From IMG/VR virus record IMGVR_UViG_3300045988_041547, positions 1-36,278 of that record: a DNA stretch of 36,278 nucleotides. The stretch is one strand, 5' to 3'. This DNA comes from a virus. The position numbers and the translations under genes are program-made. The first letter of the stretch is position 1, and every line of letters begins with the position of its first letter. Under the pieces are notes generated by a model. It was not told the origin of the DNA, did no database searches, and saw nothing but the letters and a program-made list of their open reading frames with translations. Positions 2,194 through 11,023 of this stretch are shown piece after piece.

Positions 2194-2632
2194 GTGTGTT
2201 CCTCCTTATATGGTTCGCATCATTTTGCCAACATCGGCAAAATGCTCAAATACTCCAATTTGGGGGACGGTTGATCTAGCTTGGATAGATGCTTGTCTAA
2301 GCTCGGTTAAAAAATCACCTAAGTCAAGCCTAGACAAGCTCTATTATTCTGTGCTTTCATTTTTTATCAATTTTTCCGTTTTTCCTCTTGCGTTCTCCCG
2401 TGATTTTTAGTAAAATCATATTGTGATTGAGCCGTTGTAAAATGGTATGTGGGCTCCGTCTAAACTCTTCCGTTTCTAGCGGCGGGAGGTCTTCATGGCA
2501 CTGCATCATCGTCCCCACCTCCTTGCGGTGCCTATGCTTAGATTATACCAATCCATTTATTCCAATCAATACCATTTATGTGCTCATTTAGTGCTCTTTG
2601 ACGCTCAAATTGCGCCAAATCTGGAAAGGTCG

Positions 2633-3151
2633 ATGGGAATGAGCCAGAATCAGTCTGAGCTGATACGGCAGCTCCAGCAAATGCGGATGGAGAAGGGGCT
2701 GACCTACCAGGCCATAGTAGACGCTTGCGAGATGGCCGGGGAGCCTGTGTCTATGTCCTCTGTCCGGCGGATTTTTTCCGATGATCCAGACCGTCCGGAG
2801 GCTTTCCGGGTCACCACGCTCCAGGCTGTGGCTCGGGCCGTAATCGGTAATGCATACAACGCGGAAACAGTCCCGCCGTCTGATTTAGCGGCGCTCCGGG
2901 CCTTGCTAGCTGTCCGTGAGGAGACAGACAAGGATCGGCAGCAGGGGATCATAGACAGGACAGAGCAGATAGCCCGGATGCAGTCCACCATAGATGAGCT
3001 ACAAGCCGAGATCAAGCGGAAGTCTAAGACCATCAAAATCATGATCCTTTGGGCCTCTGTTATGACGATGCTGCTAATTGCGTTTTTTGTGGCCCTTGCG
3101 GTCTATGTTGTTTGGGATTTGTCGCACCCTGGGTGCGGGATATTAAGATAG
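2633..3151 (+). CDS. membrane-anchored XRE-like HTH protein (HTH + coiled coil + C-terminal TM helix), about 172 aa
   Basis: Internal ATG of ORF 2495..3151. LIRQLQQMRMEKGLTYQAIVDACEMAGEPVSMSSVRRIF is HTH-like. DRTEQIARMQSTIDELQAEIKRKSKTIK looks like a coiled coil. IMILWASVMTMLLIAFFVALAVYVVW is a hydrophobic helix. The start is uncertain (2633 or 2639). Confidence 0.6.
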   Translation: MGMSQNQSELIRQLQQMRMEKGLTYQAIVDACEMAGEPVSMSSVRRIFSDDPDRPEAFRVTTLQAVARAVIGNAYNAETVPPSDLAALRALLAVREETDKDRQQGIIDRTEQIARMQSTIDELQAEIKRKSKTIKIMILWASVMTMLLIAFFVALAVYVVWDLSHPGCGILR

Positions 3152-3163
3152 GAGGAGTTAAAA

Positions 3164-3811
3164 ATGGAGCAATTAGTTGGTACGCTGCTCCTGTTGTTCG
3201 TCTTTTCCGCTATCCTGATTGGGGCCCTGATGTGGCAAAAATCCGGCACAAAGCGGGCACAGAAAAAAGCGGAAGATCAAAATCGGCAGGATGAGACCCG
3301 GCAGAAGATCGCGGAGGCAGAGGCCGAGTGGAGGAAGCAGCCCCACTCTTGGGATGCTCCAGTGGCCCCGGAAAAGCCAAAGGAGGAGCCGAAAAAGGAT
3401 GATGGCGTAACATTTAAGGCCACCGGGATGGCCTACCACATGGACGGTCTAGAAAAAATCGCCGCTGAAAACTTGGACTATGAGATGACAAACGCGGAAA
3501 TAAAAGAGGAGTATGAGCAGTACGACAGAATCTATAAGTACGAGTACCCGGTAGAGACCGTGGAGCTTGTTCCGGAGCCAGACAACGAGGCCGACCCAAA
3601 CGCCATTGCTGTTCACATCAATGGAGAAAAGGTGGCCTATATTAAGAGAGGTAGCACCACCAGGGCCCGGAACCTCCTGGCAAGCAGAAACAGAAAAATA
3701 ACCGCTGAGGTGTACGGTGGGCCCTACAAAATGGTGGAGGAGGACGATGATGGCAGGTTGACCGTCATCAAAGACGAGAGCCCCATCCGCGTTATTATCA
3801 AGATCAAATAA
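3164..3811 (+). CDS. membrane-anchored HIRAN-domain protein, 215 aa
   Basis: N-terminal TM helix LVGTLLLLFVFSAILIGALMW, then a charged linker. The C-terminal part, FKATGMAYH...VELVPEPDNEADPNAIAVHINGEKVAYIKRGSTTRARNLL, matches the HIRAN pattern (v.L.rEPdNpyDpnAi.V...g..iGyi). A GGAGGAG RBS lies upstream. Confidence 0.6.
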   Translation: MEQLVGTLLLLFVFSAILIGALMWQKSGTKRAQKKAEDQNRQDETRQKIAEAEAEWRKQPHSWDAPVAPEKPKEEPKKDDGVTFKATGMAYHMDGLEKIAAENLDYEMTNAEIKEEYEQYDRIYKYEYPVETVELVPEPDNEADPNAIAVHINGEKVAYIKRGSTTRARNLLASRNRKITAEVYGGPYKMVEEDDDGRLTVIKDESPIRVIIKIK

Positions 3812-3953: not shown

Positions 3954-5060
3954 ATGCAATGCCGGAAATGCCGTGCAGAGGCCCCAGGCGGGGCCAATTA
4001 CTGCCCAAAGTGCGGGGCTAAATTAGTTGTTGCGCACGGAGTAAAAAGTCGTGGCAACGGTCAAGGAACCGCTTTTAAGCGTGGGAAAACGTGGACAGCA
4101 AAGTGGAGCCTCCCGGCATACATTGATGAAAATGGGAAACTGCATCACCCACGTAAAACAAAGGGTGGATTCCAGACAAAAAAAGCCGCATTGGCTTATG
4201 CGTCATGCCCACCGGATTCCGTTGTCAAAGCGCCTACACTCCGAGCATACCATAAGACATGGCACAACGCAGGATTTACAAAATTGAGCAAATCAAAGCA
4301 AATAGCCTATGATATAGCGTGGAAGCGCTGGGCTGGCCTATATGATAAGCCTGTGTCTAATATCTCCATAGGTGATTTGCAGGGGCAGGTGGACACTGAG
4401 ACCTCCACATACTACCCCGCACGGGATATGAAAACCGTAGCGTCACACCTCCTGAAAATGGCCGTTGCAGAGGGCCATCTCCGGGCAAATCTGGCGGAAT
4501 ATATCGAGCTTCCACCGCTGGATGAAAAAGAGATGACCCCGTACACCGAGGACGAGATTAAATTATTCTGGGCGGCATACACCGCCGGTGATACGTTTGT
4601 GGGCTACATCCTGCTGATGATCTACACCGGCATGATGCCCGGTGAGCTATTTATCCTCAAAAAAGACATGATAGATTTTGACAAATGCGAAATTCGGGGT
4701 GCTGGTCTGAAGACCAAAAAGCGGAAAGAAACGCCCCTGGTATTTCCGCAGTCAATCAGCCCCGTGCTCCGCAAACTCTGTGACTGCTCCAAGAGCCGAA
4801 AAGATTACGTTTTATGCATGGACCGCGACAAATTTTACCCAGAATACCATAGAGCTGTCCAAAGCGCTGGATGCAGGGATCTCCCGCCGTACTCCTGCCG
4901 CCATACCACTGCTACAGCACTGGCGCTTGGAAACATCGCCCCTTCTGTTATTCAGGAGGTTATGAGGCATAGTAAATTTACAACGACGCAGCGCTATATT
5001 CACCCCGATAATGCCGCTTCCCATGCCGCGATCAATCAGATCGTGACAAGCGCAGAGTGA
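3954..5060 (+). CDS. int: tyrosine integrase with N-terminal zinc ribbon, 368 aa
   Basis: N-terminus MQCRKCRAEAPGGANYCPKCG (CxxC..CxxC). The C-terminus has tyrosine-recombinase boxes: ...MMPGELFIL..., CRHTTATALALGNI, VMRHSKFTTTQRYIH. It sits directly upstream of the tRNA-derived attP. Confidence 0.9.
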   Translation: MQCRKCRAEAPGGANYCPKCGAKLVVAHGVKSRGNGQGTAFKRGKTWTAKWSLPAYIDENGKLHHPRKTKGGFQTKKAALAYASCPPDSVVKAPTLRAYHKTWHNAGFTKLSKSKQIAYDIAWKRWAGLYDKPVSNISIGDLQGQVDTETSTYYPARDMKTVASHLLKMAVAEGHLRANLAEYIELPPLDEKEMTPYTEDEIKLFWAAYTAGDTFVGYILLMIYTGMMPGELFILKKDMIDFDKCEIRGAGLKTKKRKETPLVFPQSISPVLRKLCDCSKSRKDYVLCMDRDKFYPEYHRAVQSAGCRDLPPYSCRHTTATALALGNIAPSVIQEVMRHSKFTTTQRYIHPDNAASHAAINQIVTSAE

Positions 5061-5062
5061 CG

Positions 5063-5085
5063 CTATTGGCTACATATTGGTTACA
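5063..5085 (+). repeat. left copy of a direct repeat flanking the attP core (candidate Int arm-type site)
   Basis: ctattgg (5063..5069) and attggttaca (5076..5085) recur at 5314..5320 and 5328..5337. Confidence 0.45.
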
Positions 5086-5121
5086 CAAGGCGAATTTTTG
5101 TAGTGTTTTCAACGGTTTTGA

Positions 5122-5185
5122 CTCCCCTGCTAAGGGAGTAGGCCGGGAAACCGGCGCGAGGGTTCAAATCCCTCCTTCCGCGCCA
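5122..5185 (+). other. attP core: 3' portion of tRNA-Ser(GCU), not a complete tRNA gene
   Basis: ctccc-ctGCTaa-gggag anticodon arm, long variable arm taggccgggaaaccggcgc, T-arm gagggttcaaatccctc, acceptor 3' strand cttccgc-g-cca. There is no matching 5' acceptor strand or D-arm upstream. Confidence 0.75.
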
Positions 5186-5187
5186 AA

Positions 5188-5232
5188 AGTACCGCATTTG
5201 CACTTGATTTTGTGTAAATGCGGTACTTTTTT
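5188..5232 (+). terminator. rho-independent terminator after the tRNA fragment (usable in both directions)
   Basis: agtaccgcattt ... aaatgcggtact forms a 12-bp stem followed by tttttt. An A-run before it makes it usable for the converging minus-strand accessory operon as well. Confidence 0.7.
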
Positions 5233-5313
5233 GCTATATTTATTTGAAAGTCTGCGCTTTGCGAATCCGCTAGGAATCACGCAGGATCACCCCAAATTAG
5301 GCAAAAATATACC

Positions 5314-5337
5314 CTATTGGTCACAACATTGGTTACA
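5314..5337 (+). repeat. right copy of the direct repeat flanking the attP core
   Basis: ctattgg (5314..5320) and attggttaca (5328..5337), nearly identical to 5063..5085. Confidence 0.45.
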
Positions 5338-5814
5338 TCATTCCGCCGCGATCCCGTGGTAATACGCCGCCAATTTGGCTTCCGGTCCAGGTCCGTCCTT
5401 GTCAAACAGAAACGCTTTTGCGAGATCGGCGTAAAACTCTACCTTGTTGCATCCGTGCTTTGTTGCCACGCTGCAATAGTCCGAGTACATCATATTCATG
5501 GCGGTGTTCCATTCCTCCGGTGTGATGTGCTCCATCACTACCCCAGCAGTTTTCGCCGCGTCGGTGGTCTGGGCTACTGTCCAATGTCCCCCAGTGCTAC
5601 CATCATCGTTTTTCATATGGGCGTTCCACTTCTCCAGGGCGTGGTCACTAAGTTTCCCAGCATGACACACACAATGCTCCATGTCGTTGACGTGCTCCCA
5701 GCACTCAATCATAGCGTCAACAGCCGCCATAGAGCGAGTGCCGATAGGTAGGGCTAGATACTCGGCTAGTTCATGTTCTAGCTTTTCTCTGTACTCCTTC
5801 AATTTGCTTTTCAT
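5338..5814 (-). CDS. hypothetical accessory protein, 158 aa
   Basis: ORF with an AGGGGGG RBS. It is the last gene before attP. No function assignable from sequence. Confidence 0.65.
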   Translation of the reverse strand: MKSKLKEYREKLEHELAEYLALPIGTRSMAAVDAMIECWEHVNDMEHCVCHAGKLSDHALEKWNAHMKNDDGSTGGHWTVAQTTDAAKTAGVVMEHITPEEWNTAMNMMYSDYCSVATKHGCNKVEFYADLAKAFLFDKDGPGPEAKLAAYYHGIAAE

Positions 5815-5826
5815 TGTATTCCCCCC

Positions 5827-6267
5827 TTATGCCAGTTTTACGACACTGGCGCAGACGTGGGAGATTGTACCCGCCACGCCTCCAAGCGTAGCGCTGATGG
5901 TGGGGGTGCCATTGCAGCACACTGGGACATAGATTGTAGTCTCTGCGTGGAGCGTGTACACAGAGCCAGCGGCTACCGTTTCCTGCGCATTGAGGCAAGG
6001 AAGCGTTGCCGTGTCCTTGAGTCCCTGGAGCACCGCCACGCCAGCAGCTGACGGTGTGAAGGTCACGTCATAGGATACGCGATAAAGGCCGGAAGAGTTG
6101 ACCTGGAAGCCTCCTGCAACCGTGTCTACTGAGCATCCGGTGTCAGTGTTGAGCACGCCCAGCACGGATACGGGGGTGCCGGTGGCAACAAACGCCTGTG
6201 ATGCGTCGTTATAAGCGTTCTGGGCGCTCTTATAGTGGGGATTTTTAAGATTTCTGTTGCAGCTCAT
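5827..6267 (-). CDS. stand-alone BclA-C-terminal-like (C1q/TNF-type jelly-roll) protein, 146 aa
   Basis: AAGGAGAA RBS. The segments ...GGFQVNSSGLYRVSYDVTFTPSAAGVAVLQ...TTIYVPV...ISHVCASVVKLA follow the beta-strand pattern and ...as..v.kvA C-terminus of the Bacillus/Clostridium BclA C-terminal domain. Confidence 0.55.
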   Translation of the reverse strand: MSCNRNLKNPHYKSAQNAYNDASQAFVATGTPVSVLGVLNTDTGCSVDTVAGGFQVNSSGLYRVSYDVTFTPSAAGVAVLQGLKDTATLPCLNAQETVAAGSVYTLHAETTIYVPVCCNGTPTISATLGGVAGTISHVCASVVKLA

Positions 6268-6287
6268 ATTGTTCTCCTTTCAGAAAT

Positions 6288-6311
6288 GCCCGGGGCAATT
6301 CCGCCCCGGGC
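6288..6311 (-). terminator. 9-bp GC hairpin between accessory genes (attenuator or weak terminator)
   Basis: gcccggggc / aattcc / gccccgggc. On the minus strand it is followed by AUUUCU. Confidence 0.35.
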
Positions 6312-6340
6312 TTATCGCTGTTAGAGCGGTTGGTTGTTGG

Positions 6341-6979
6341 TTATGCGCACCCGCAGCCGCTATTGCAGCCGCAGAAGGGAGATGGCCCAGCCGTGTAAGT
6401 GTAACCGTTCGGATAACGGACAACACCGTACATGCGGTTGTCAGCCTCCAGAGCAGAGACCTTATCCCGCAGCTGCTGGATTTCGTTGGCCTGCATCAGT
6501 GCCCGGGTCTGCTCACCCTCGGCGTGGATCGCCGTAGTGATGTCGCAGGTCTGCCGGTCAATCTGTGCGGACAGGTTAGCGGTCGCAAGTCTGTTGTCGC
6601 AGCAACACTGGGCAATCTGAGACTGGATGTTGTTCCCGGTCTGCATAATCGTTGTGTTTGTGCCCGCCTGCGCAAGCGCAACTTCTTTGCCAAGCTGACC
6701 GATGTTGCTCTGCATCTCATAGCCCAGGTTGCAAATTCCGTTGCCCAGGTTGGACAGCCGGTCGTTGATCTGTCCGAACTGCTGCCCAAACAGAATCTCC
6801 TGCTGAGAGGCCGCAGTTGCATAACGATCAAGCTCCCCGCTGTTCTGGCGGTTAAATCCGTTCCAGCCGCCCATAATGACAAACAGAAACAGGATGATAA
6901 TCCACCATGCACCGTTACCGGCCATGCCGTCAGCATCCTTGGTTACCGCTGCCAGGTCGGAAAGACTATAGTTTTCCAC
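6341..6979 (-). CDS. membrane protein with coiled-coil region, CCC motif and Cys-rich C-terminus, 212 aa
   Basis: GTG start with an AAGGAG RBS. TM helix AWWIIILFLFVIMGGW. Gln/Asn-rich helical repeats, QCCCDNR, and C-terminal FCGCNSGCGCA. Confidence 0.65.
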   Translation of the reverse strand: MENYSLSDLAAVTKDADGMAGNGAWWIIILFLFVIMGGWNGFNRQNSGELDRYATAASQQEILFGQQFGQINDRLSNLGNGICNLGYEMQSNIGQLGKEVALAQAGTNTTIMQTGNNIQSQIAQCCCDNRLATANLSAQIDRQTCDITTAIHAEGEQTRALMQANEIQQLRDKVSALEADNRMYGVVRYPNGYTYTAGPSPFCGCNSGCGCA

Positions 6980-7029
6980 AAAATCACTCCTTGTCGTTAG
7001 ATTTTATATAACACCGTAGCGCTCCGGGG

Positions 7030-7254
7030 TTATTTCAAAAATTCGGAAAATTCCGCCGCCTGCCGCTTGAGTTGCTGAAACTGCTCCTGCGTCATTTGCC
7101 CGCTGGAGAGCATCTGCTCTACCTGCCGTTTTGCCCCCTCCGGGGTCATACCGGCGGCGAATTTGCGAAACTCAGAAATCATAGCAAGCGGGTTATTTGC
7201 TGTTGTTTTTTGCGGCTGACTTTGCCGCAGAAATTGGCTCAGTGGGTTTGTCAT
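7030..7254 (-). CDS. small hypothetical protein, 74 aa
   Basis: ATG with a GGAGG RBS (9-nt spacer). It overlaps the 3' end of the upstream gene by 62 nt in another frame. Confidence 0.5.
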   Translation of the reverse strand: MTNPLSQFLRQSQPQKTTANNPLAMISEFRKFAAGMTPEGAKRQVEQMLSSGQMTQEQFQQLKRQAAEFSEFLK

Positions 7255-7570
7255 TTATAGTTGCCTCCAATCTTGCTATACGCTCTTCCAGGCTCCGTAC
7301 GTCAACCGCTGGAGCCTCCTTGTGGGGCGATATGTCAAATGCCTGTACGGTCTTATAGCCTGCGCCGTCTGTCTGGCAAAGCCAGATCATTGGTGCAGTA
7401 TCATCCATCACAATAGCATTGCTGTTTGGCGCCATCTGGAGCGCCTGCGCTCCATTTTGTCCATTGACATGTATTACCTCATATCTTGGCGCCTGCTGCT
7501 GGGGTTGCTGATTGTAGTAGTTGCCATAGCCCTGATACGGGGCATTGTAAGCTCCATACCCATATGCCAT
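7193..7570 (-). CDS. Tyr/Gly/Asn/Gln-rich N-terminus protein, 125 aa
   Basis: ATG at 7570 with GGAGGTG 8 nt upstream. MAYGYGAYNAPYQGYGNYYNQQPQQQ low-complexity head, then a globular part and LEERIARLEATI. Confidence 0.6.
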   Translation of the reverse strand: MAYGYGAYNAPYQGYGNYYNQQPQQQAPRYEVIHVNGQNGAQALQMAPNSNAIVMDDTAPMIWLCQTDGAGYKTVQAFDISPHKEAPAVDVRSLEERIARLEATINDKPTEPISAAKSAAKNNSK

Positions 7571-7715
7571 TTGCCTCACCTCCTGGATTAAGCATACCGC
7601 AGCCGGTGATTATTCGCCACGCTGCGAAAGTCTCCCTTTTTTATCAAATTTTTATCAAAAAAGTATCATTTATGGCTTGGCATATACACAGATGAATTCT
7701 AAATTTAAGAGCAAG

Positions 7716-7745
7716 AAAATCCCCCACCGAAAGGTGGGGGATTTT
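7716..7745 (-). terminator. strong intrinsic terminator after the lysis operon
   Basis: aaaatcccccacc / gaaa / ggtgggggatttt is a perfect 13-bp stem flanked by A/T runs on both sides. Confidence 0.8.
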
Positions 7746-7746
7746 C

Positions 7747-7944
7747 TCATACCCGATTCATTTTTCTCCGGACTTTGCCAGACAAATGCCGGATTCCACC
7801 CGGCGAGTAGTCCATGATCTCCCCGCAGGATTCCAACGTTTCCCCGGCGGCACGCAGGTCAAAAAACCTGCGCTCTGGTCCGGTAAAATTGCAGGTTGCG
7901 CGGAAATGCTCCAGCTCCGGAATGGTGTAGTCTCTGATCTGCAT
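7747..7944 (-). CDS. small sigma-70 region-4 / LuxR-like HTH protein, 65 aa
   Basis: ATG with a GGAGGTG RBS. FTGPERRFFDLRAAGETLESCGEIMDYSPGGIRHLSGKVRRKM resembles region-4-type HTH mini-proteins. Confidence 0.45.
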   Translation of the reverse strand: MQIRDYTIPELEHFRATCNFTGPERRFFDLRAAGETLESCGEIMDYSPGGIRHLSGKVRRKMNRV

Positions 7945-7959
7945 CCCCGTCACCTCCAA

Positions 7960-8991
7960 TTACCGATTCGTGATAATCATAACCCTTACGGTGCTCTCCG
8001 GCATATCCAGCACCAGCTCTTCCCCTTCTCCGGCTTTGCCCTTGAGCTTGCCAGCTGCCACCAGCTTGTCAACCTCAGTACGGTAATAGTCCGGCAGCTC
8101 GGAGATCAGGTGATAATACCGCTCAATCGGCTGGAGCCTGCCATCACTGCCAAGCCCTACAACCATATTGGTCTGCATATCACCGTCCGCACCCAGATAG
8201 TAGGTATCGCCGCCTGCTTCAACTTTCCACGCATTTTCCAGCATATAGCCCTCCTTGTCGAAGTAATACCACGTATCCTTGATCTTTGCCCACTGCTCTT
8301 TGTAGTAGGTAGTGGTGCTGTTGGCGTACCACCAGCCCTTGCTGTCCTTGTGCCAGCCGATGGTGTACTTACCGGTAGTACCAGCCAACAGACTTGCGTC
8401 GCCCAGCACATTGACGTCAAACCGCCCAGAGCATCCGGGGATGGTGTAGGAGCTGCTGTACTGCCAGATTGCCCAGCCAGCCGCAGACGCTGTGCTGGCA
8501 TACTGCGCATACCACTGGACGTATCCACCCACCCGGTTAATGTCCACATATTTTCGGAGATAGTCCAGGTTGTAGTATGTACCAGCCCGGTACCCAGCCG
8601 CCTTGATCGTCTCACAGAATGCCACAGTATGGGCGTTAAATGCCTCTTTGCCCAGAGTGACGCCCTGCTTTTTGGCGTAGGAGACGGTGTCATACTCAAA
8701 ATCGTAGAACACCGGCAAGGCCAGCTTATCCTTGTACGGTTCCAGCAGCTTGAGCACAAATGCCGCCTCCGCTTTTGCCCCGGCAGCATTGAGGGCATAG
8801 CTAAAGTGATACACACCCACAGGGATTCCCTGAGCAATCGCACCCTCAATATTATGGATAAAATAGTTGTCGGTGTGGCTGACGCCGTAGCCGGTGCGGA
8901 TAATGGCAAACCCAATGCCCGCCGCCTTGATTTTCGCCCAGTCCAGAGCGCCGTTATGCTCCGAAACGTCGATACCGATAATTTTAGCCAT
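7960..8991 (-). CDS. endolysin: GH25 muramidase + Trp/Tyr-rich cell-wall-binding repeats + C-terminal extension
   Basis: MAKIIGIDVSEHNGALDWAKIKAAGIGFAIIRTGYG is a GH25 N-terminus. GWHKDSKGWWYANS..YYKEQWAKIKDTWYYFDKEGYMLENAW looks like choline-binding-type repeats. The start overlaps the holin stop. Confidence 0.85.
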   Translation of the reverse strand: MAKIIGIDVSEHNGALDWAKIKAAGIGFAIIRTGYGVSHTDNYFIHNIEGAIAQGIPVGVYHFSYALNAAGAKAEAAFVLKLLEPYKDKLALPVFYDFEYDTVSYAKKQGVTLGKEAFNAHTVAFCETIKAAGYRAGTYYNLDYLRKYVDINRVGGYVQWYAQYASTASAAGWAIWQYSSSYTIPGCSGRFDVNVLGDASLLAGTTGKYTIGWHKDSKGWWYANSTTTYYKEQWAKIKDTWYYFDKEGYMLENAWKVEAGGDTYYLGADGDMQTNMVVGLGSDGRLQPIERYYHLISELPDYYRTEVDKLVAAGKLKGKAGEGEELVLDMPESTVRVMIITNR

Positions 8992-9205
8992 TGTCGTTGT
9001 CCTCCTCAACGTTGACCTCCGGCAGCCCTGCAATACTGGTCAGCAGGCTCACAACGCCTGCCAGTGCCGCAGTGCCTACCACGGTTACCCAGTCCACTGC
9101 GCCGATGGTCACGGCAGCGGGAATCATTGCAACTGCCGTCTGCGCCACCGTTTTCACAGCACGGATACCGGCGGCTTTCCACCACATCTTTGTCTTAATG
9201 GGCAT
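8984..9205 (-). CDS. holin (phi LC3-like), about 73 aa
   Basis: AGIRAVKTVAQTAVAMIPAAV and VTVVGTAALAGVVSLLTSIAG are hydrophobic segments, followed by an acidic tail. It sits immediately upstream of the endolysin. ATG 9205 has better RBS spacing than 9214. Confidence 0.75.
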   Translation of the reverse strand: MPIKTKMWWKAAGIRAVKTVAQTAVAMIPAAVTIGAVDWVTVVGTAALAGVVSLLTSIAGLPEVNVEEDNDNG

Positions 9206-9461
9206 GTTTATCATCCTCCAAATCCTTAATCCGATGGTTGATTACCTTGATCTGCTCCTCAACGACGGGCACCCGCCGTGCAAATCCATTGTGTTCTCTG
9301 ACCTCCCGGGTCAGCTCCTCCAGTTTCGTTTCGGTAACCGCCTGATGTTTCTCCAAATTTGCCTGCATCTTTTTTGCCGTGCTGTGGCTGGTAATAACCA
9401 CACCTACCAGCGCCAGCACCCCTGTAATGAGTGGCGGCACGATTGCAATCACAAGCTCCAA
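9195..9461 (-). CDS. XhlA-like membrane protein of the lysis cassette, 88 aa
   Basis: N-terminal TM helix ELVIAIVPPLITGVLALVGVVI plus a coiled coil (KLEELTREVREHNGFARRVPVVEEQIKVINHRIKDLE), as in the XhlA family. Confidence 0.6.
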   Translation of the reverse strand: MELVIAIVPPLITGVLALVGVVITSHSTAKKMQANLEKHQAVTETKLEELTREVREHNGFARRVPVVEEQIKVINHRIKDLEDDKHAH

Positions 9462-9464
9462 TAA

Positions 9465-9863
9465 TTACACCTCCGCAAAATATGTTTTGTCCTCAAGCCC
9501 GGTCGGCACGCCGTCCTCCAGCGCGACATAGAGGTGCGTGCCGTCGGTATAGTGGTACCCTGTCTTGACCTCACGCCCCTCTGTCCAGCGCAGTGGATTC
9601 TTCAGAGTGCCCAGCGCGTCAGGGTCTTCCACCAGCTCCCACGTAAATCCGGCGGACGAGGCGTACACCGGTTTCCATTTATACCCTACCTTTGGCTCCA
9701 TCGTCGGCACCGGCTCCTCTGGGATTGTCCCCAGTATCAATGCGATTTTTTCACTGTCCGTTAACGGCTCCATGCTGCGCTCCGCGTTGAGCTGTGATTC
9801 CTGCATTGCCGCAATTTCCTCGGCGGTCATGTCTCGGATGACGCCATTGTCGTTTATCTTCAC
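9465..9863 (-). CDS. hypothetical tail-fibre-associated protein
   Basis: ORF 9465..9878. A GTGA start/stop overlap with the fibre gene favours GTG at 9863; the TTG at 9878 is the alternative. Confidence 0.55.
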   Translation of the reverse strand: MKINDNGVIRDMTAEEIAAMQESQLNAERSMEPLTDSEKIALILGTIPEEPVPTMEPKVGYKWKPVYASSAGFTWELVEDPDALGTLKNPLRWTEGREVKTGYHYTDGTHLYVALEDGVPTGLEDKTYFAEV

Positions 9864-11023
9864 GCCTTTACCCCCCAAATTGTGATTGTTCCAGCCGCAG
9901 TGTTTTCGGTTTCTTCTGCAACGACTGTATTTATGCGGATACCGTTAACATAACCGCCAGAATACCCAGTTGAAGGAGGTTTTCCGGCGCCGACCATTGG
10001 TGTCCCTTGCACCAAAGCTACCGTTGGTCCAACCAAGCATGTCATAGCTGGATCACAATCAACAAAAATCAACGTTACCGCACCGTTCGAGTGGTTTACT
10101 GTGCCAAATTTATACCCGCTACCAAATGCTTTCCATTTAGTCGTCCCGTCTTGCAACGTACTTAACTCTATTGTCCTGTACACAACATCAGTTTTAGCAG
10201 TAAATCTTTCTGTAGCTGCGCTATCTGATGCGACCACAAGAATTCTTATTTTTTTGAGGTAGTCAAAATTCAGCTGGTCAACGACCGCCTCACTAAGCGA
10301 TATAGTGCCAATTTGTTCCCACGTCTCGCCGCCCCCGCCGCTAGGCATATCCACCGGCCTCCACGCTGTCGGTACCCCGTTATCATCCACCGCAGCAATT
10401 TTGACGATCTGTCCCACAGCGGCACCCGTGACATCCAACCCAGTTCCGGCGGGACCCTGTGGACCAACTGGACCCTGAGGTCCCGTCTCGCCCTGAGGTC
10501 CCTGTGCACCGGTGTCTCCCTTTGGTCCCCGCGCTCCGTCAAACTCCCCGGATGCTTTTGCCTGTGCCAGCGCCTTGTCGGTAGCACCCTGTAGATCATC
10601 CTCCGTCAGCGCACCCAGCCCCTTTGCCGTGATCTCCACAGCGCCGGTCTGACCGTTGACACTGGAGACACCAGCGATTCCGCCACCCTTTTCCAGGGCT
10701 TCAATGCGTTCATCCAGCTGCTCCCATGTCCGTATTTCGGTGGGGGTGTACGCATAGTCACTGGGCTTCGGGCGCGTCTCCAGCTGAATCCGTGCCATGT
10801 CCATCGTATGCTCCGGCGTATACGCCCAAAACACGATGGCATGTGGCAGCTGCATCAGCTCCGGCGGGATTGCCACCTGCTGATTCTCAACCTTAAATGG
10901 CACCGCCTTGCCGCCCCACTTAAAATGCACCTCTGGCACATTCTCCGGCTCCGTGATGGTGATGGTGATGTCACGATCCCACTGATAAACGTGGGATTCG
11001 CCGTTTGAAAGACTATACTGCAT
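9860..11023 (-). CDS. tail fibre with collagen-like Gly-X-Y repeats, 387 aa
   Basis: GARGPKGDTGAQGPQGETGPQGPVGPQGPAGTG triplet run. The C-terminal roughly 130 aa are encoded by visibly more AT-rich DNA. Confidence 0.8.
   Translation of the reverse strand: MQYSLSNGESHVYQWDRDITITITEPENVPEVHFKWGGKAVPFKVENQQVAIPPELMQLPHAIVFWAYTPEHTMDMARIQLETRPKPSDYAYTPTEIRTWEQLDERIEALEKGGGIAGVSSVNGQTGAVEITAKGLGALTEDDLQGATDKALAQAKASGEFDGARGPKGDTGAQGPQGETGPQGPVGPQGPAGTGLDVTGAAVGQIVKIAAVDDNGVPTAWRPVDMPSGGGGETWEQIGTISLSEAVVDQLNFDYLKKIRILVVASDSAATERFTAKTDVVYRTIELSTLQDGTTKWKAFGSGYKFGTVNHSNGAVTLIFVDCDPAMTCLVGPTVALVQGTPMVGAGKPPSTGYSGGYVNGIRINTVVAEETENTAAGTITIWGVKA

Follow-up and report, generated by a model that had tools for sequence, protein, structure and literature searches.

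The window analysed in this study, positions 1 to 36,278 (36,278 nucleotides) of the virus record IMGVR_UViG_3300045988_041547 in IMG/VR, is a siphophage-type genome of ~36 kb in which the minus strand carries the late genes. Five minus-strand genes at positions 5338-7570, referred to here as p1 to p5 in the order in which they are read, had been proposed in an earlier sequence-only reading to encode spore-coat or exosporium-like proteins that could alter the surface of the spore or cell by lysogenic conversion. On careful comparison with other phage genomes it was found that these five genes, together with a small gene, probably of the helix-turn-helix (HTH) type, upstream of p1, are one copy of a conserved and self-contained phage cassette and not a spore-coat moron. 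The order HTH, p1, p2, p3 and small β protein, with or without a protein of the DUF7841 family (p5), is conserved in ~190 phage loci set in very different genomic backbones, and the cassette is near-universal, or core-like, in a very large phage group and not a sporadic add-on.

A first survey with the p3 of the window found 96 loci, and the later set, which includes distant ones, comprises 193 loci, 189 of them with p3. As seen by tblastn in the 96 loci, p2 and p3 are almost always adjacent and p1 usually lies upstream, with p4 and p5 apparently patchy. The patchiness of p4 was revised because profile searches exposed diverged copies; where p4 had seemed absent, p3 is followed by a gene for a 133-residue protein, which hhalign identifies as a diverged p4 (probability 97.7 %). 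By profile counts in the 189 p3 loci, p1 is present in 179, a p4-like gene in 150, p2 in 133 (probably an under-count, because p2-like genes are short and of low complexity) and p5, an optional member, in 60; p2 stands directly 5' of p3 in at least 133 loci. Loci with no TNF-like gene 3' of p3 carry there a different Cys-rich protein of ~130 residues, designated b5, which is unrelated to p4 by hhalign, and a gene for one or the other β protein (p4-like or b5) lies within 600 nt on the 3' side of 178 of the 191 p3 genes. The contigs that carry the cassette range from 27 to 55 % GC and from ~30 to 150 kb (up to 148 kb). Its position is equally varied, lying after the lysis genes and beside the integrase in temperate phages, among early genes in Clostridium perfringens phages, after tail-fibre or receptor-binding genes in Dulem virus 36 and in loci L126 and L129, and before the major head gene in L140, and such variation fits an autonomous accessory unit.

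The p3 family comprises 3,946 clusters at 90 % identity, mostly from contigs of phage size (35-45 kb), and still 843 when clustered at 50 %. Close relatives of the window fall in bins of Oscillospiraceae, Dysosmobacter and Ca. Limivicinus, and the more distant copies extend much further. Phages HMD-PC1 and vB_CpeS-17DYC of C. perfringens, which are of lytic type, show the order p1-like, p2-like, p3 and b5 with the same compositional signatures, placed between antirepressor and Gam/recombinase genes; the same order occurs in Dulem virus 36 directly 3' of the receptor-binding protein. In these distant phages analogous M/Q/N-rich genes of 74-81 residues occupy the position of p2. Amongst the crAss-like phages, gp23 of cr52_1 is a full p3, with a Gly-rich transmembrane (TM) helix, the motif ASCCCD and a ...DGCGCGY tail, and it follows gp20 (unannotated), gp21 ('LysB-like') and gp22 (DUF7841) and precedes a β-rich protein. 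Similarly gp13 of cr273_1 is a p3 (ICQCCCENRLA), followed by a β protein of ~113 residues and then by a helical protein with charged low complexity. DUF7841 occurs in at least 15 crAss-like records and lies beside lysis-type genes in the two that were inspected, cr6_1 and cr52_1. The N4-like Vibrio cholerae phage 12VC501 carries p3 alone, in its early region, with AECCCD aligned to the AQCCCD of the window. None of the Bacillus phages among the 50,697 records searched has a cassette member, nor does any Listeria, Staphylococcus or Streptococcus phage record. Many in-frame TAG codons were observed in the coding sequences of L104, L106 and L107 (crAss-like, Suoliviridae), for example ten in gp27 of cr6_1, consistent with stop-codon reassignment; crAss-like cassette members are probably under-counted because in-frame TAG breaks standard open reading frame (ORF) finding.

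This distribution weighs heavily on the proposal that p1-p5 are prophage-encoded spore-coat or exosporium components which convert the spore surface, and which we consider very improbable. Its sequence-only form looked to homologues mainly in non-sporulating hosts as counter-evidence, and such homologues were indeed found for part of the family: p3, DUF7841 and the arrangement of p3 with a β protein and low-complexity proteins are present in Crassvirales, whose hosts are Bacteroidota (PMC10136315), and p3 is present in a Vibrio cholerae phage. The occurrence of cassette genes in phages of bacteria that never sporulate makes a dedicated role in the spore coat unlikely; nor do an early location in lytic-type C. 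perfringens phages, a core-like status in a large phage group and the lack of any member in Bacillus phage records sit well with it. Points in its favour are that those hosts which can be named belong to the Clostridia (Oscillospiraceae), with the sporulation gene bofA 7 kb away in one host contig, that the products are rich in Tyr/Gly/Gln and in Cys, and that the soluble ones lack signal peptides, as do coat proteins assembled in the mother cell. Searches of Pfam and NCBIfam at E≤1 nevertheless matched none of p1-p5 to a spore-coat family (CotF/Coat_F, CotJ, GerQ, CotY/Z and others). Conversion of the vegetative cell envelope is possible.

An argument for a spore role comes from p4 (5827..6267, minus strand, 146 residues), which had been read as a stand-alone jelly roll resembling the BclA C-terminus, and in this respect the earlier description stands. 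Its match to Pfam BclA_C (PF18573) has an E-value of 5.5e-5 and 23.5 bits, below the 38-bit gathering cut-off, and 23 of 24 homologues match the same family, the best at only 1.9e-8. The AlphaFold2 (AF2) model (pLDDT 88, pTM 0.80, from a 24-sequence alignment) is a ten-strand TNF/C1q jelly roll, which makes p4 a newly found stand-alone member of the TNF/C1q-like fold. The top Foldseek matches in PDB are the BclA C-terminal domain (3tyj, 1wck), BxpB (8d02) and ExsFA/ExsF (7r1m, 9h3d), with E-values of 5e-8 to 4e-7 and a TM-score of ~0.7, and the Foldseek probability is 1.00 against BclA, BxpB, ExsFA, C1q-like and TNF-family chains. In being a stand-alone protein of ~16 kDa, p4 resembles ExsF (bioRxiv 10.1101/2025.02.11.637640). 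The exosporium chains are, however, followed by C1q/TNF proteins and by phage fibre tips or knobs (9k09, 8ke9, 3rwn), and amongst predicted viral structures in BFVD the matches are stand-alone proteins of 130-150 residues from gut sipho-, myo- and podophages, as well as heads of collagen-repeat fibres, fibritin whiskers and an L-shaped tail fibre. Because C1q/TNF, phage fibre and viral matches share the fold, it is not specific to spores. Further, GXY collagen repeats are absent from p4, and neither Pfam nor NCBIfam gave it a Collagen or exosporium-leader match at E≤1; searches of PDB by sequence and by profile brought no meaningful match, and hhalign found p4 unrelated to the C-terminus of the collagen-repeat tail fibre of the window. 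Of its six Cys residues, the family conserves Cys3, Cys91, Cys117-118 and Cys139. An Ena-type (DUF3992) pilus subunit was also considered for p4 and b5 on account of the N-terminal Cys and CC motif; it is absent from the top 50 Foldseek matches of p4 and gave no sequence match.

The member on which the cassette appears to be built is p3 (6341..6979, minus strand, 212 residues, GTG start), the only cassette product with a hydrophobic segment, a single helix at residues 23-39. In the window it shows an acidic N-tail (SLSDLAAV), a Gly-flanked TM helix, a long coiled coil with QCCCD, the motif GVVRYPNGYTYTAGPSPF and the tail CGCNSGCGCA, and has nine Cys in all, including the CCC motif, so that the TM segment and Cys motifs earlier read from the sequence are confirmed. 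The family alignment (A5) conserves a SLSDIAAV N-terminus, the Gly-flanked TM helix, QCCC(E/D)TQRAID, a P-rich or VRYP motif and the terminal Cys/Gly cluster. Over 27 diverse members the N-terminal flank is net acidic, with 43 positive against 95 negative charges, and the TM helix is followed by a single conserved Arg; judged by this charge bias, p3 is predicted to adopt an N-out/C-in topology like small proteins of the Pf3-coat type. It matches phrog_16490 (function unknown) and no holin, antiholin or spanin family in Pfam or PHROGs. In PADLOC there is only a weak coiled-coil likeness to the ZorA tail (E 0.012), and the NCBIfam match (1.4e-4) reaches 20 bits against a 190-bit cut-off. An i-spanin identity for p3, considered on account of the crAss 'LysB-like' neighbour, was rejected, since the neighbour proved to be another protein and phages of monoderm hosts carry p3 in abundance.

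The remaining members are soluble in prediction, and a hydrophobic N-terminus or signal peptide is absent from p1, p2, p4 and p5 alike. The product of p1 (7193..7570, minus strand, 125 residues, ATG at 7570) begins with MAYGYGAYNAPYQGYGNYYNQQPQQQ; the Tyr/Gly/Asn/Gln-rich composition attributed to the whole protein is real and is limited to the first ~27 residues, after which come a small domain, conserved in the family alignment (VNGxNGA...PNS...D..P.WL..TDGAGY), and, at the C-terminus, a short coiled coil. The PHROG that it matches is phrog_21718 (function unknown), and PDB sequence and profile searches gave no meaningful match. The 74-residue helical protein p2 (7030..7254, minus strand) is confirmed as an ORF and is Q/M-rich with a C-terminal SHOCT-like motif; it matches phrog_22984 (function unknown), and its Pfam matches to SHOCT and DUF7726 are weak. 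None of p1, p2 and p3 gave a significant match in NCBIfam, PADLOC or PDB sequence searches. The fifth protein, p5 (5338..5814, minus strand, 158 residues), consists of an N-terminal helical hairpin and a DUF7841 domain (PF25223, residues 51-152, E 7.1e-21, 75 bits against a cut-off of 25.2) with invariant NxDGxxGxHW and NMMYSDY motifs; 944 homologues were collected, and PF25223 was found in all 120 that were listed. The AF2 model of p5 is all-helical (pLDDT 88), and it has no Foldseek match in PDB at E<0.6, PDB sequence and profile searches also giving nothing meaningful.

The last component is a small ORF (sORF) at 7747..7944 (minus strand, 65 residues, with its own ribosome-binding site, RBS), which abuts the endolysin stop upstream of the terminator and likely encodes a stand-alone HTH protein of the LuxR/GerE or sigma-70 region 4 type that could serve as dedicated regulator of the cassette. 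Homologues lie 5' of p1 in ~90 of the 193 loci, as found by an iterated profile search whose profile may have drifted. The 73-residue homologue in L052 matches Pfam GerE at 1.8e-13 (50.3 bits, above the cut-off), Sigma70_r4_2 at 5e-7 and PHROG sigma-factor families, that in L097 matches GerE faintly, and the sORF of the window has no Pfam match at E≤1, to PF00196 and PF08281 or to any other family. A GerE-sized regulator of LuxR type, as in L052, would also suit a spore-coat function. The control region 5' of p1 (7571..7712, minus strand) is A/T-rich with three GATA repeats, and contains a -10-like TATGCT (7591-7596) ~8 nt before the RBS GGAGGTG (7577-7583) and no recognisable -35. GATA/T-run and TATG(A/C)T elements are conserved 5' of p1 in an alignment of 15 relatives; a -10-like element shared by relatives and lacking a -35 therefore suggests an activator-dependent promoter, for which the adjacent HTH protein would be the obvious candidate activator. 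Regular-expression scans with the B. subtilis consensus, which may not transfer to Oscillospiraceae, found no sigE, sigK, sigF or sigG promoter within 160 nt of p1 in the window and 53 relatives, a further point against spore expression; scans that included sigma-A were likewise negative upstream of p1, both for the window and for 52 of 54 relatives.

Other elements share this intergenic site. On the plus strand of the window a degenerate relic of a sigma-A promoter, TTGGCA-17-TAAATT (7677-7705), faces away from the cluster and has no gene to drive, and in relatives (L018-L025, L003, L021-L023) a perfect TTGACA-17-TATAAT ~120 nt 5' of p1, on the opposite strand, drives inserted divergent genes. 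The 17-nt spacer of the promoter in these relatives is a palindrome whose letters vary between phages with the palindromy kept, for example CCGCCCAATGGGCGG, ACACACGTGTGT and CTACGCTAGCGTAG. Because relatives hold a divergent promoter and inserted genes there, the region 5' of p1 is both a transcription boundary and a hot spot of gene insertion. In two large low-GC phages (L140 4576-5106 and L173 4620-5213) the gene 5' of p1, read from its sequence, apparently combines several hydrophobic segments with an HTH-like stretch at the C-terminus (…KTFSEIGELLDLDNPRIV…), and it occupies the place of the small soluble HTH gene of other phages.

Considering these features together, we tentatively favour, as a reading that may well prove wrong, an intracellular membrane-anchored complex with an action on the envelope of the host such as superinfection exclusion. 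Transcription would start from the activator-dependent promoter, probably served by the cassette's own HTH protein. The p3 protein would insert N-out/C-in, so that its coiled coil, CCC motif and Cys/Gly tail face the cytoplasm, where it could recruit the partners that lack signal peptides, namely the β protein (presumed trimeric), the low-complexity p1 and p2, and p5. The resulting membrane-anchored assembly, capped by the β protein, may target the envelope or membrane of the host, in lysogens as well as during infection, and its likeliest role would be to block or alter a membrane-associated step such as the entry of DNA from a superinfecting phage. A host-interaction or accessory role is favoured because the cassette has its own terminators and HTH gene, because its position varies (early in lytic phages, after the lysis genes in temperate ones) and because it persists in degraded prophages.

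Several observations weigh against this proposal. Pfam, PHROGs, NCBIfam and PADLOC gave no match of any member to a characterised family of exclusion, defence or lysis proteins, and known superinfection-exclusion systems are usually single genes and not cassettes of four to six genes. Most viral structural matches of p4 are fibre heads, and TNF-like trimers and Cys-rich proteins are more typical of extracellular fibres. The N-out/C-in topology of p3 is a prediction from charge bias, and expression in lysogens is presumed. The type of p3 tail and the type of β protein co-vary only partially, and the co-variation is confounded by phylogeny. Finally, cassette proteins in prophage remnants are identical to those of intact phages, so that the remnants may be recent and not maintained by selection.

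Some of these observations would suit virion-associated accessories, in which p3, presumed to be a trimeric coiled coil, and p4 form an extra fibre, whisker, decoration or ejected membrane-inserting protein, a reading that we regard as unlikely. As part of it, p1, p2 and p5 would serve as assembly factors, and outside the cell the particle would owe its stability to the Cys clusters. Fibre tips, knobs and whiskers of phages commonly have the TNF/C1q fold, soluble products with no signal peptide are expected of structures assembled in the cytoplasm as virions are, and the cassette is co-oriented with the late genes, adjoins fibre or receptor-binding genes (Dulem virus 36, L126 and L129) or the head gene (L140) in other phages, often has small peptidase-like genes beside it, and is core-like within a large phage group. 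Against this, a strong terminator separates it from the late/lysis operon, it has a dedicated HTH gene, and it (or p3 alone, in the N4-like Vibrio phage) belongs to the early region in C. perfringens and Vibrio phages. Moreover, it remains intact in prophage remnants devoid of structural genes, the TM helix of p3 is bona fide, and no member falls in a PHROG structural category.

A lysis-associated accessory module, in which p3 and its partners tune holin timing, membrane disruption or release, would account for the location in the window directly after the genes for the XhlA-like protein, the holin and the GH25 endolysin, and for the frequency of endolysin and holin as upstream neighbours in relatives. 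In crAss-like phages DUF7841 and p3 come after genes annotated as holin and LysB-like, and in cr273_1 the p3 gene is five genes upstream of the endolysin. The lysis set of the window is, however, already complete, the cassette is often split from lysis genes by insertions or located elsewhere (in the early region, or before the head gene), and no holin, antiholin or spanin family was matched; the crAss LysB-like sequence (gp27) is unrelated to p3 and lacks the CCC motif. We find this module quite unlikely, and weakly prefer a role of the superinfection-exclusion type over both a virion appendage and a lysis accessory.

A more speculative version of the membrane-anchored assembly, to which we give little weight, is a previously undescribed device shared by phages of several host phyla, in which p3, as a Pf3-like N-out anchor, would nucleate a proteinaceous structure at the cytoplasmic side of the host membrane, made of prion-like low-complexity proteins together with Cys-rich TNF-like trimers and cross-linked or bridged by metal. 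If true, phages of Clostridia, Bacteroidota and Vibrio would build an intracellular structure of a new kind, whose components converge on the principles by which spore coats are built.

In the window the cassette is a terminator-bounded unit beside attP, and much of what the sequence-only reading described of its layout holds: five minus-strand ORFs, each preceded by a GGAGG-type RBS, a strong terminator upstream and no standard virion or lysis protein amongst the five by Pfam, PHROGs, NCBIfam or PADLOC. The upstream hairpin, an intrinsic terminator of the lysis/sORF transcript (7713..7748, minus strand; dG -32.3 kcal/mol, z -7.1, 0 of 200 shuffles as stable), ends in a U-rich tail. A GC-rich hairpin between p3 and p4 (6288..6311, minus strand; dG -27.3 kcal/mol, z -4.9, 0 of 200 shuffles as stable), followed by AUUUCU, is a possible partial terminator or attenuator, and the closing terminator hairpin (5190..5225, minus strand; RNA fold z -3.7, then CUUUUGG) adjoins a tRNA fragment. 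An Rfam scan of 4800-8200 gave only chance-level matches overlapping the terminator. By GC content the cluster does not stand out from the remaining genome. An overlap of 62 nt (7193-7254) joins p1 to p2, the final ~20 codons of p1 lying over the start of p2 in a different frame. A similar p1/p2-like overlap was seen in L100 (9735-9790) and in L097-L099, and because of this recurrence translational coupling of the two genes is suggested.

The placing of attP in the sequence-only reading is supported: between the integrase and the cluster lies its probable core, read from the sequence as the 3' two-thirds of a tRNA-Ser(GCT) (~5118..5185, plus strand) with anticodon arm, long variable arm, T arm and acceptor 3' end with CCA; the fragment has a blastn match to tRNA-Ser of other phage records, and ARAGORN found no complete tRNA there. 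The tyrosine integrase itself (3954..5060, plus strand; Pfam Phage_integrase E 1.2e-15), which has an N-terminal zinc ribbon, is outside the cassette. Two genes lie 5' of it on the same strand (2495-3151 and 3164-3811), one with a sub-threshold Pfam match to Spore_III_AB (Stage III sporulation protein AB; E 2e-6, 28.3 against a 32.5-bit cut-off) and the other with a HIRAN domain (E 1.2e-5). On the other side of the cluster, upstream of the sORF and all on the minus strand, are the GH25/choline-binding endolysin (7960..9033), the holin (8984..9214) and, preceding the holin, an 88-residue TM and coiled-coil protein that we read as XhlA-like (9195..9461), followed further upstream by a gene at 9465..9878 and by a probable tail fibre with a collagen triple-helix repeat (9860..11023; Pfam E 1.4e-4).

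Several genes recur near the cassette in other phages. One encodes a protein of ~180 residues with a helical hairpin and Y/R/D/G low complexity that resembles the N-terminus of p5, and another a small ferritin-like helical protein. Small peptidase-like genes lie within a few genes of the cassette (L140 7824-8186, L126 7885-8199 and L185 4703-5086) and are of two types, a ~120-residue Cys/His protein (phrog_3754, function unknown) and a ~104-residue HExxH protein (phrog_1233, a weak 'peptidase' PHROG match); their recurrence hints at processing of cassette proteins. PDB sequence and profile searches with b5 and two of the peptidase-like neighbours gave nothing meaningful. Reverse-transcriptase genes occur a few kb 5' of the cassette or DUF7841 gene in L097 (4930-6027, an Oscillospiraceae-type prophage) and in the crAss-like L106 (1233-2261) and L107 (1074-2099), where they are annotated as intron reverse transcriptases and one stands beside an Mtd-like tail protein. 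Intact cassettes were also seen in bacterial contigs without the rest of the phage, as in L102 (9401-11751), beside an rve-family IS element, and in L098 and L099, beside truncated portal and truncated holin genes.

No function is assigned to p3 or its partners in Pfam, PHROGs, NCBIfam, PADLOC or PDB, and no description of the cassette was found in the literature on DUF7841, C. perfringens phages, BclA_C or prophage and sporulation morons. Since abundant phages of the human gut, Oscillospiraceae siphophages and crAss-like phages among them, carry p3, the function of the cassette would be relevant to a large share of gut phage-host interactions, whether it proves to be exclusion, envelope remodelling or a virion appendage. 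Scattered "hypothetical" genes become in this way one conserved, separately regulated and testable unit. The case is also a warning that a BclA-like fold and a Tyr/Gly/Cys-rich composition are by themselves insufficient to infer a spore function.

Amongst known systems, p4 shares its predicted TNF/C1q-like jelly roll with ExsFA/BxpB (ExsF) and the C-terminal domain of BclA in the exosporium of the Bacillus cereus group, and it is, like ExsF/BxpB, a stand-alone protein of ~150 residues with no signal peptide. It differs in showing only 14-17 % sequence identity and a Pfam score under the gathering cut-off, in lacking the collagen-like region and exosporium leader of BclA, and in being encoded by phages, with partner genes found also in phages of non-sporulating hosts; we know of no counterpart in ExsF or BclA of its conserved N-terminal Cys and CC motif. 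The fold, and probably trimerisation, are likewise shared with TNF/C1q-headed fibre tips such as those of collagen-repeat tail fibres, the tail-needle knobs of Sf6 and HS1 and cyanophage A-1(L)/A4, whereas p4 is not fused to a shaft, does not resemble the collagen-repeat fibre of the window and has the lysis cassette and a terminator between it and the structural genes.

Single-gene superinfection-exclusion proteins, such as lactococcal Sie2009, P22 SieA, HK97 gp15 and T4 Imm/Sp, are small, membrane-anchored and encoded outside the core modules; they occur in temperate and virulent phages and, in temperate ones, often beside the lysogeny/integrase region. The cassette has no sequence or profile similarity to them, and consists of four to six genes that include low-complexity and TNF-like proteins. 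Early proteins of the phi29 p16.7 and p1 type have an N-terminal TM segment and a coiled coil and organise viral processes at the membrane. The short N-tail, single TM helix and coiled coil (predicted to be cytoplasmic) of p3 recall this plan, as does the early location of the cassette in some lytic phages, whereas p3 shows no detectable homology to them, has no evident DNA-binding domain, and brings Cys-rich motifs and β-protein partners of its own. Taken conservatively, the cassette fits amongst the accessory membrane modules of phages.

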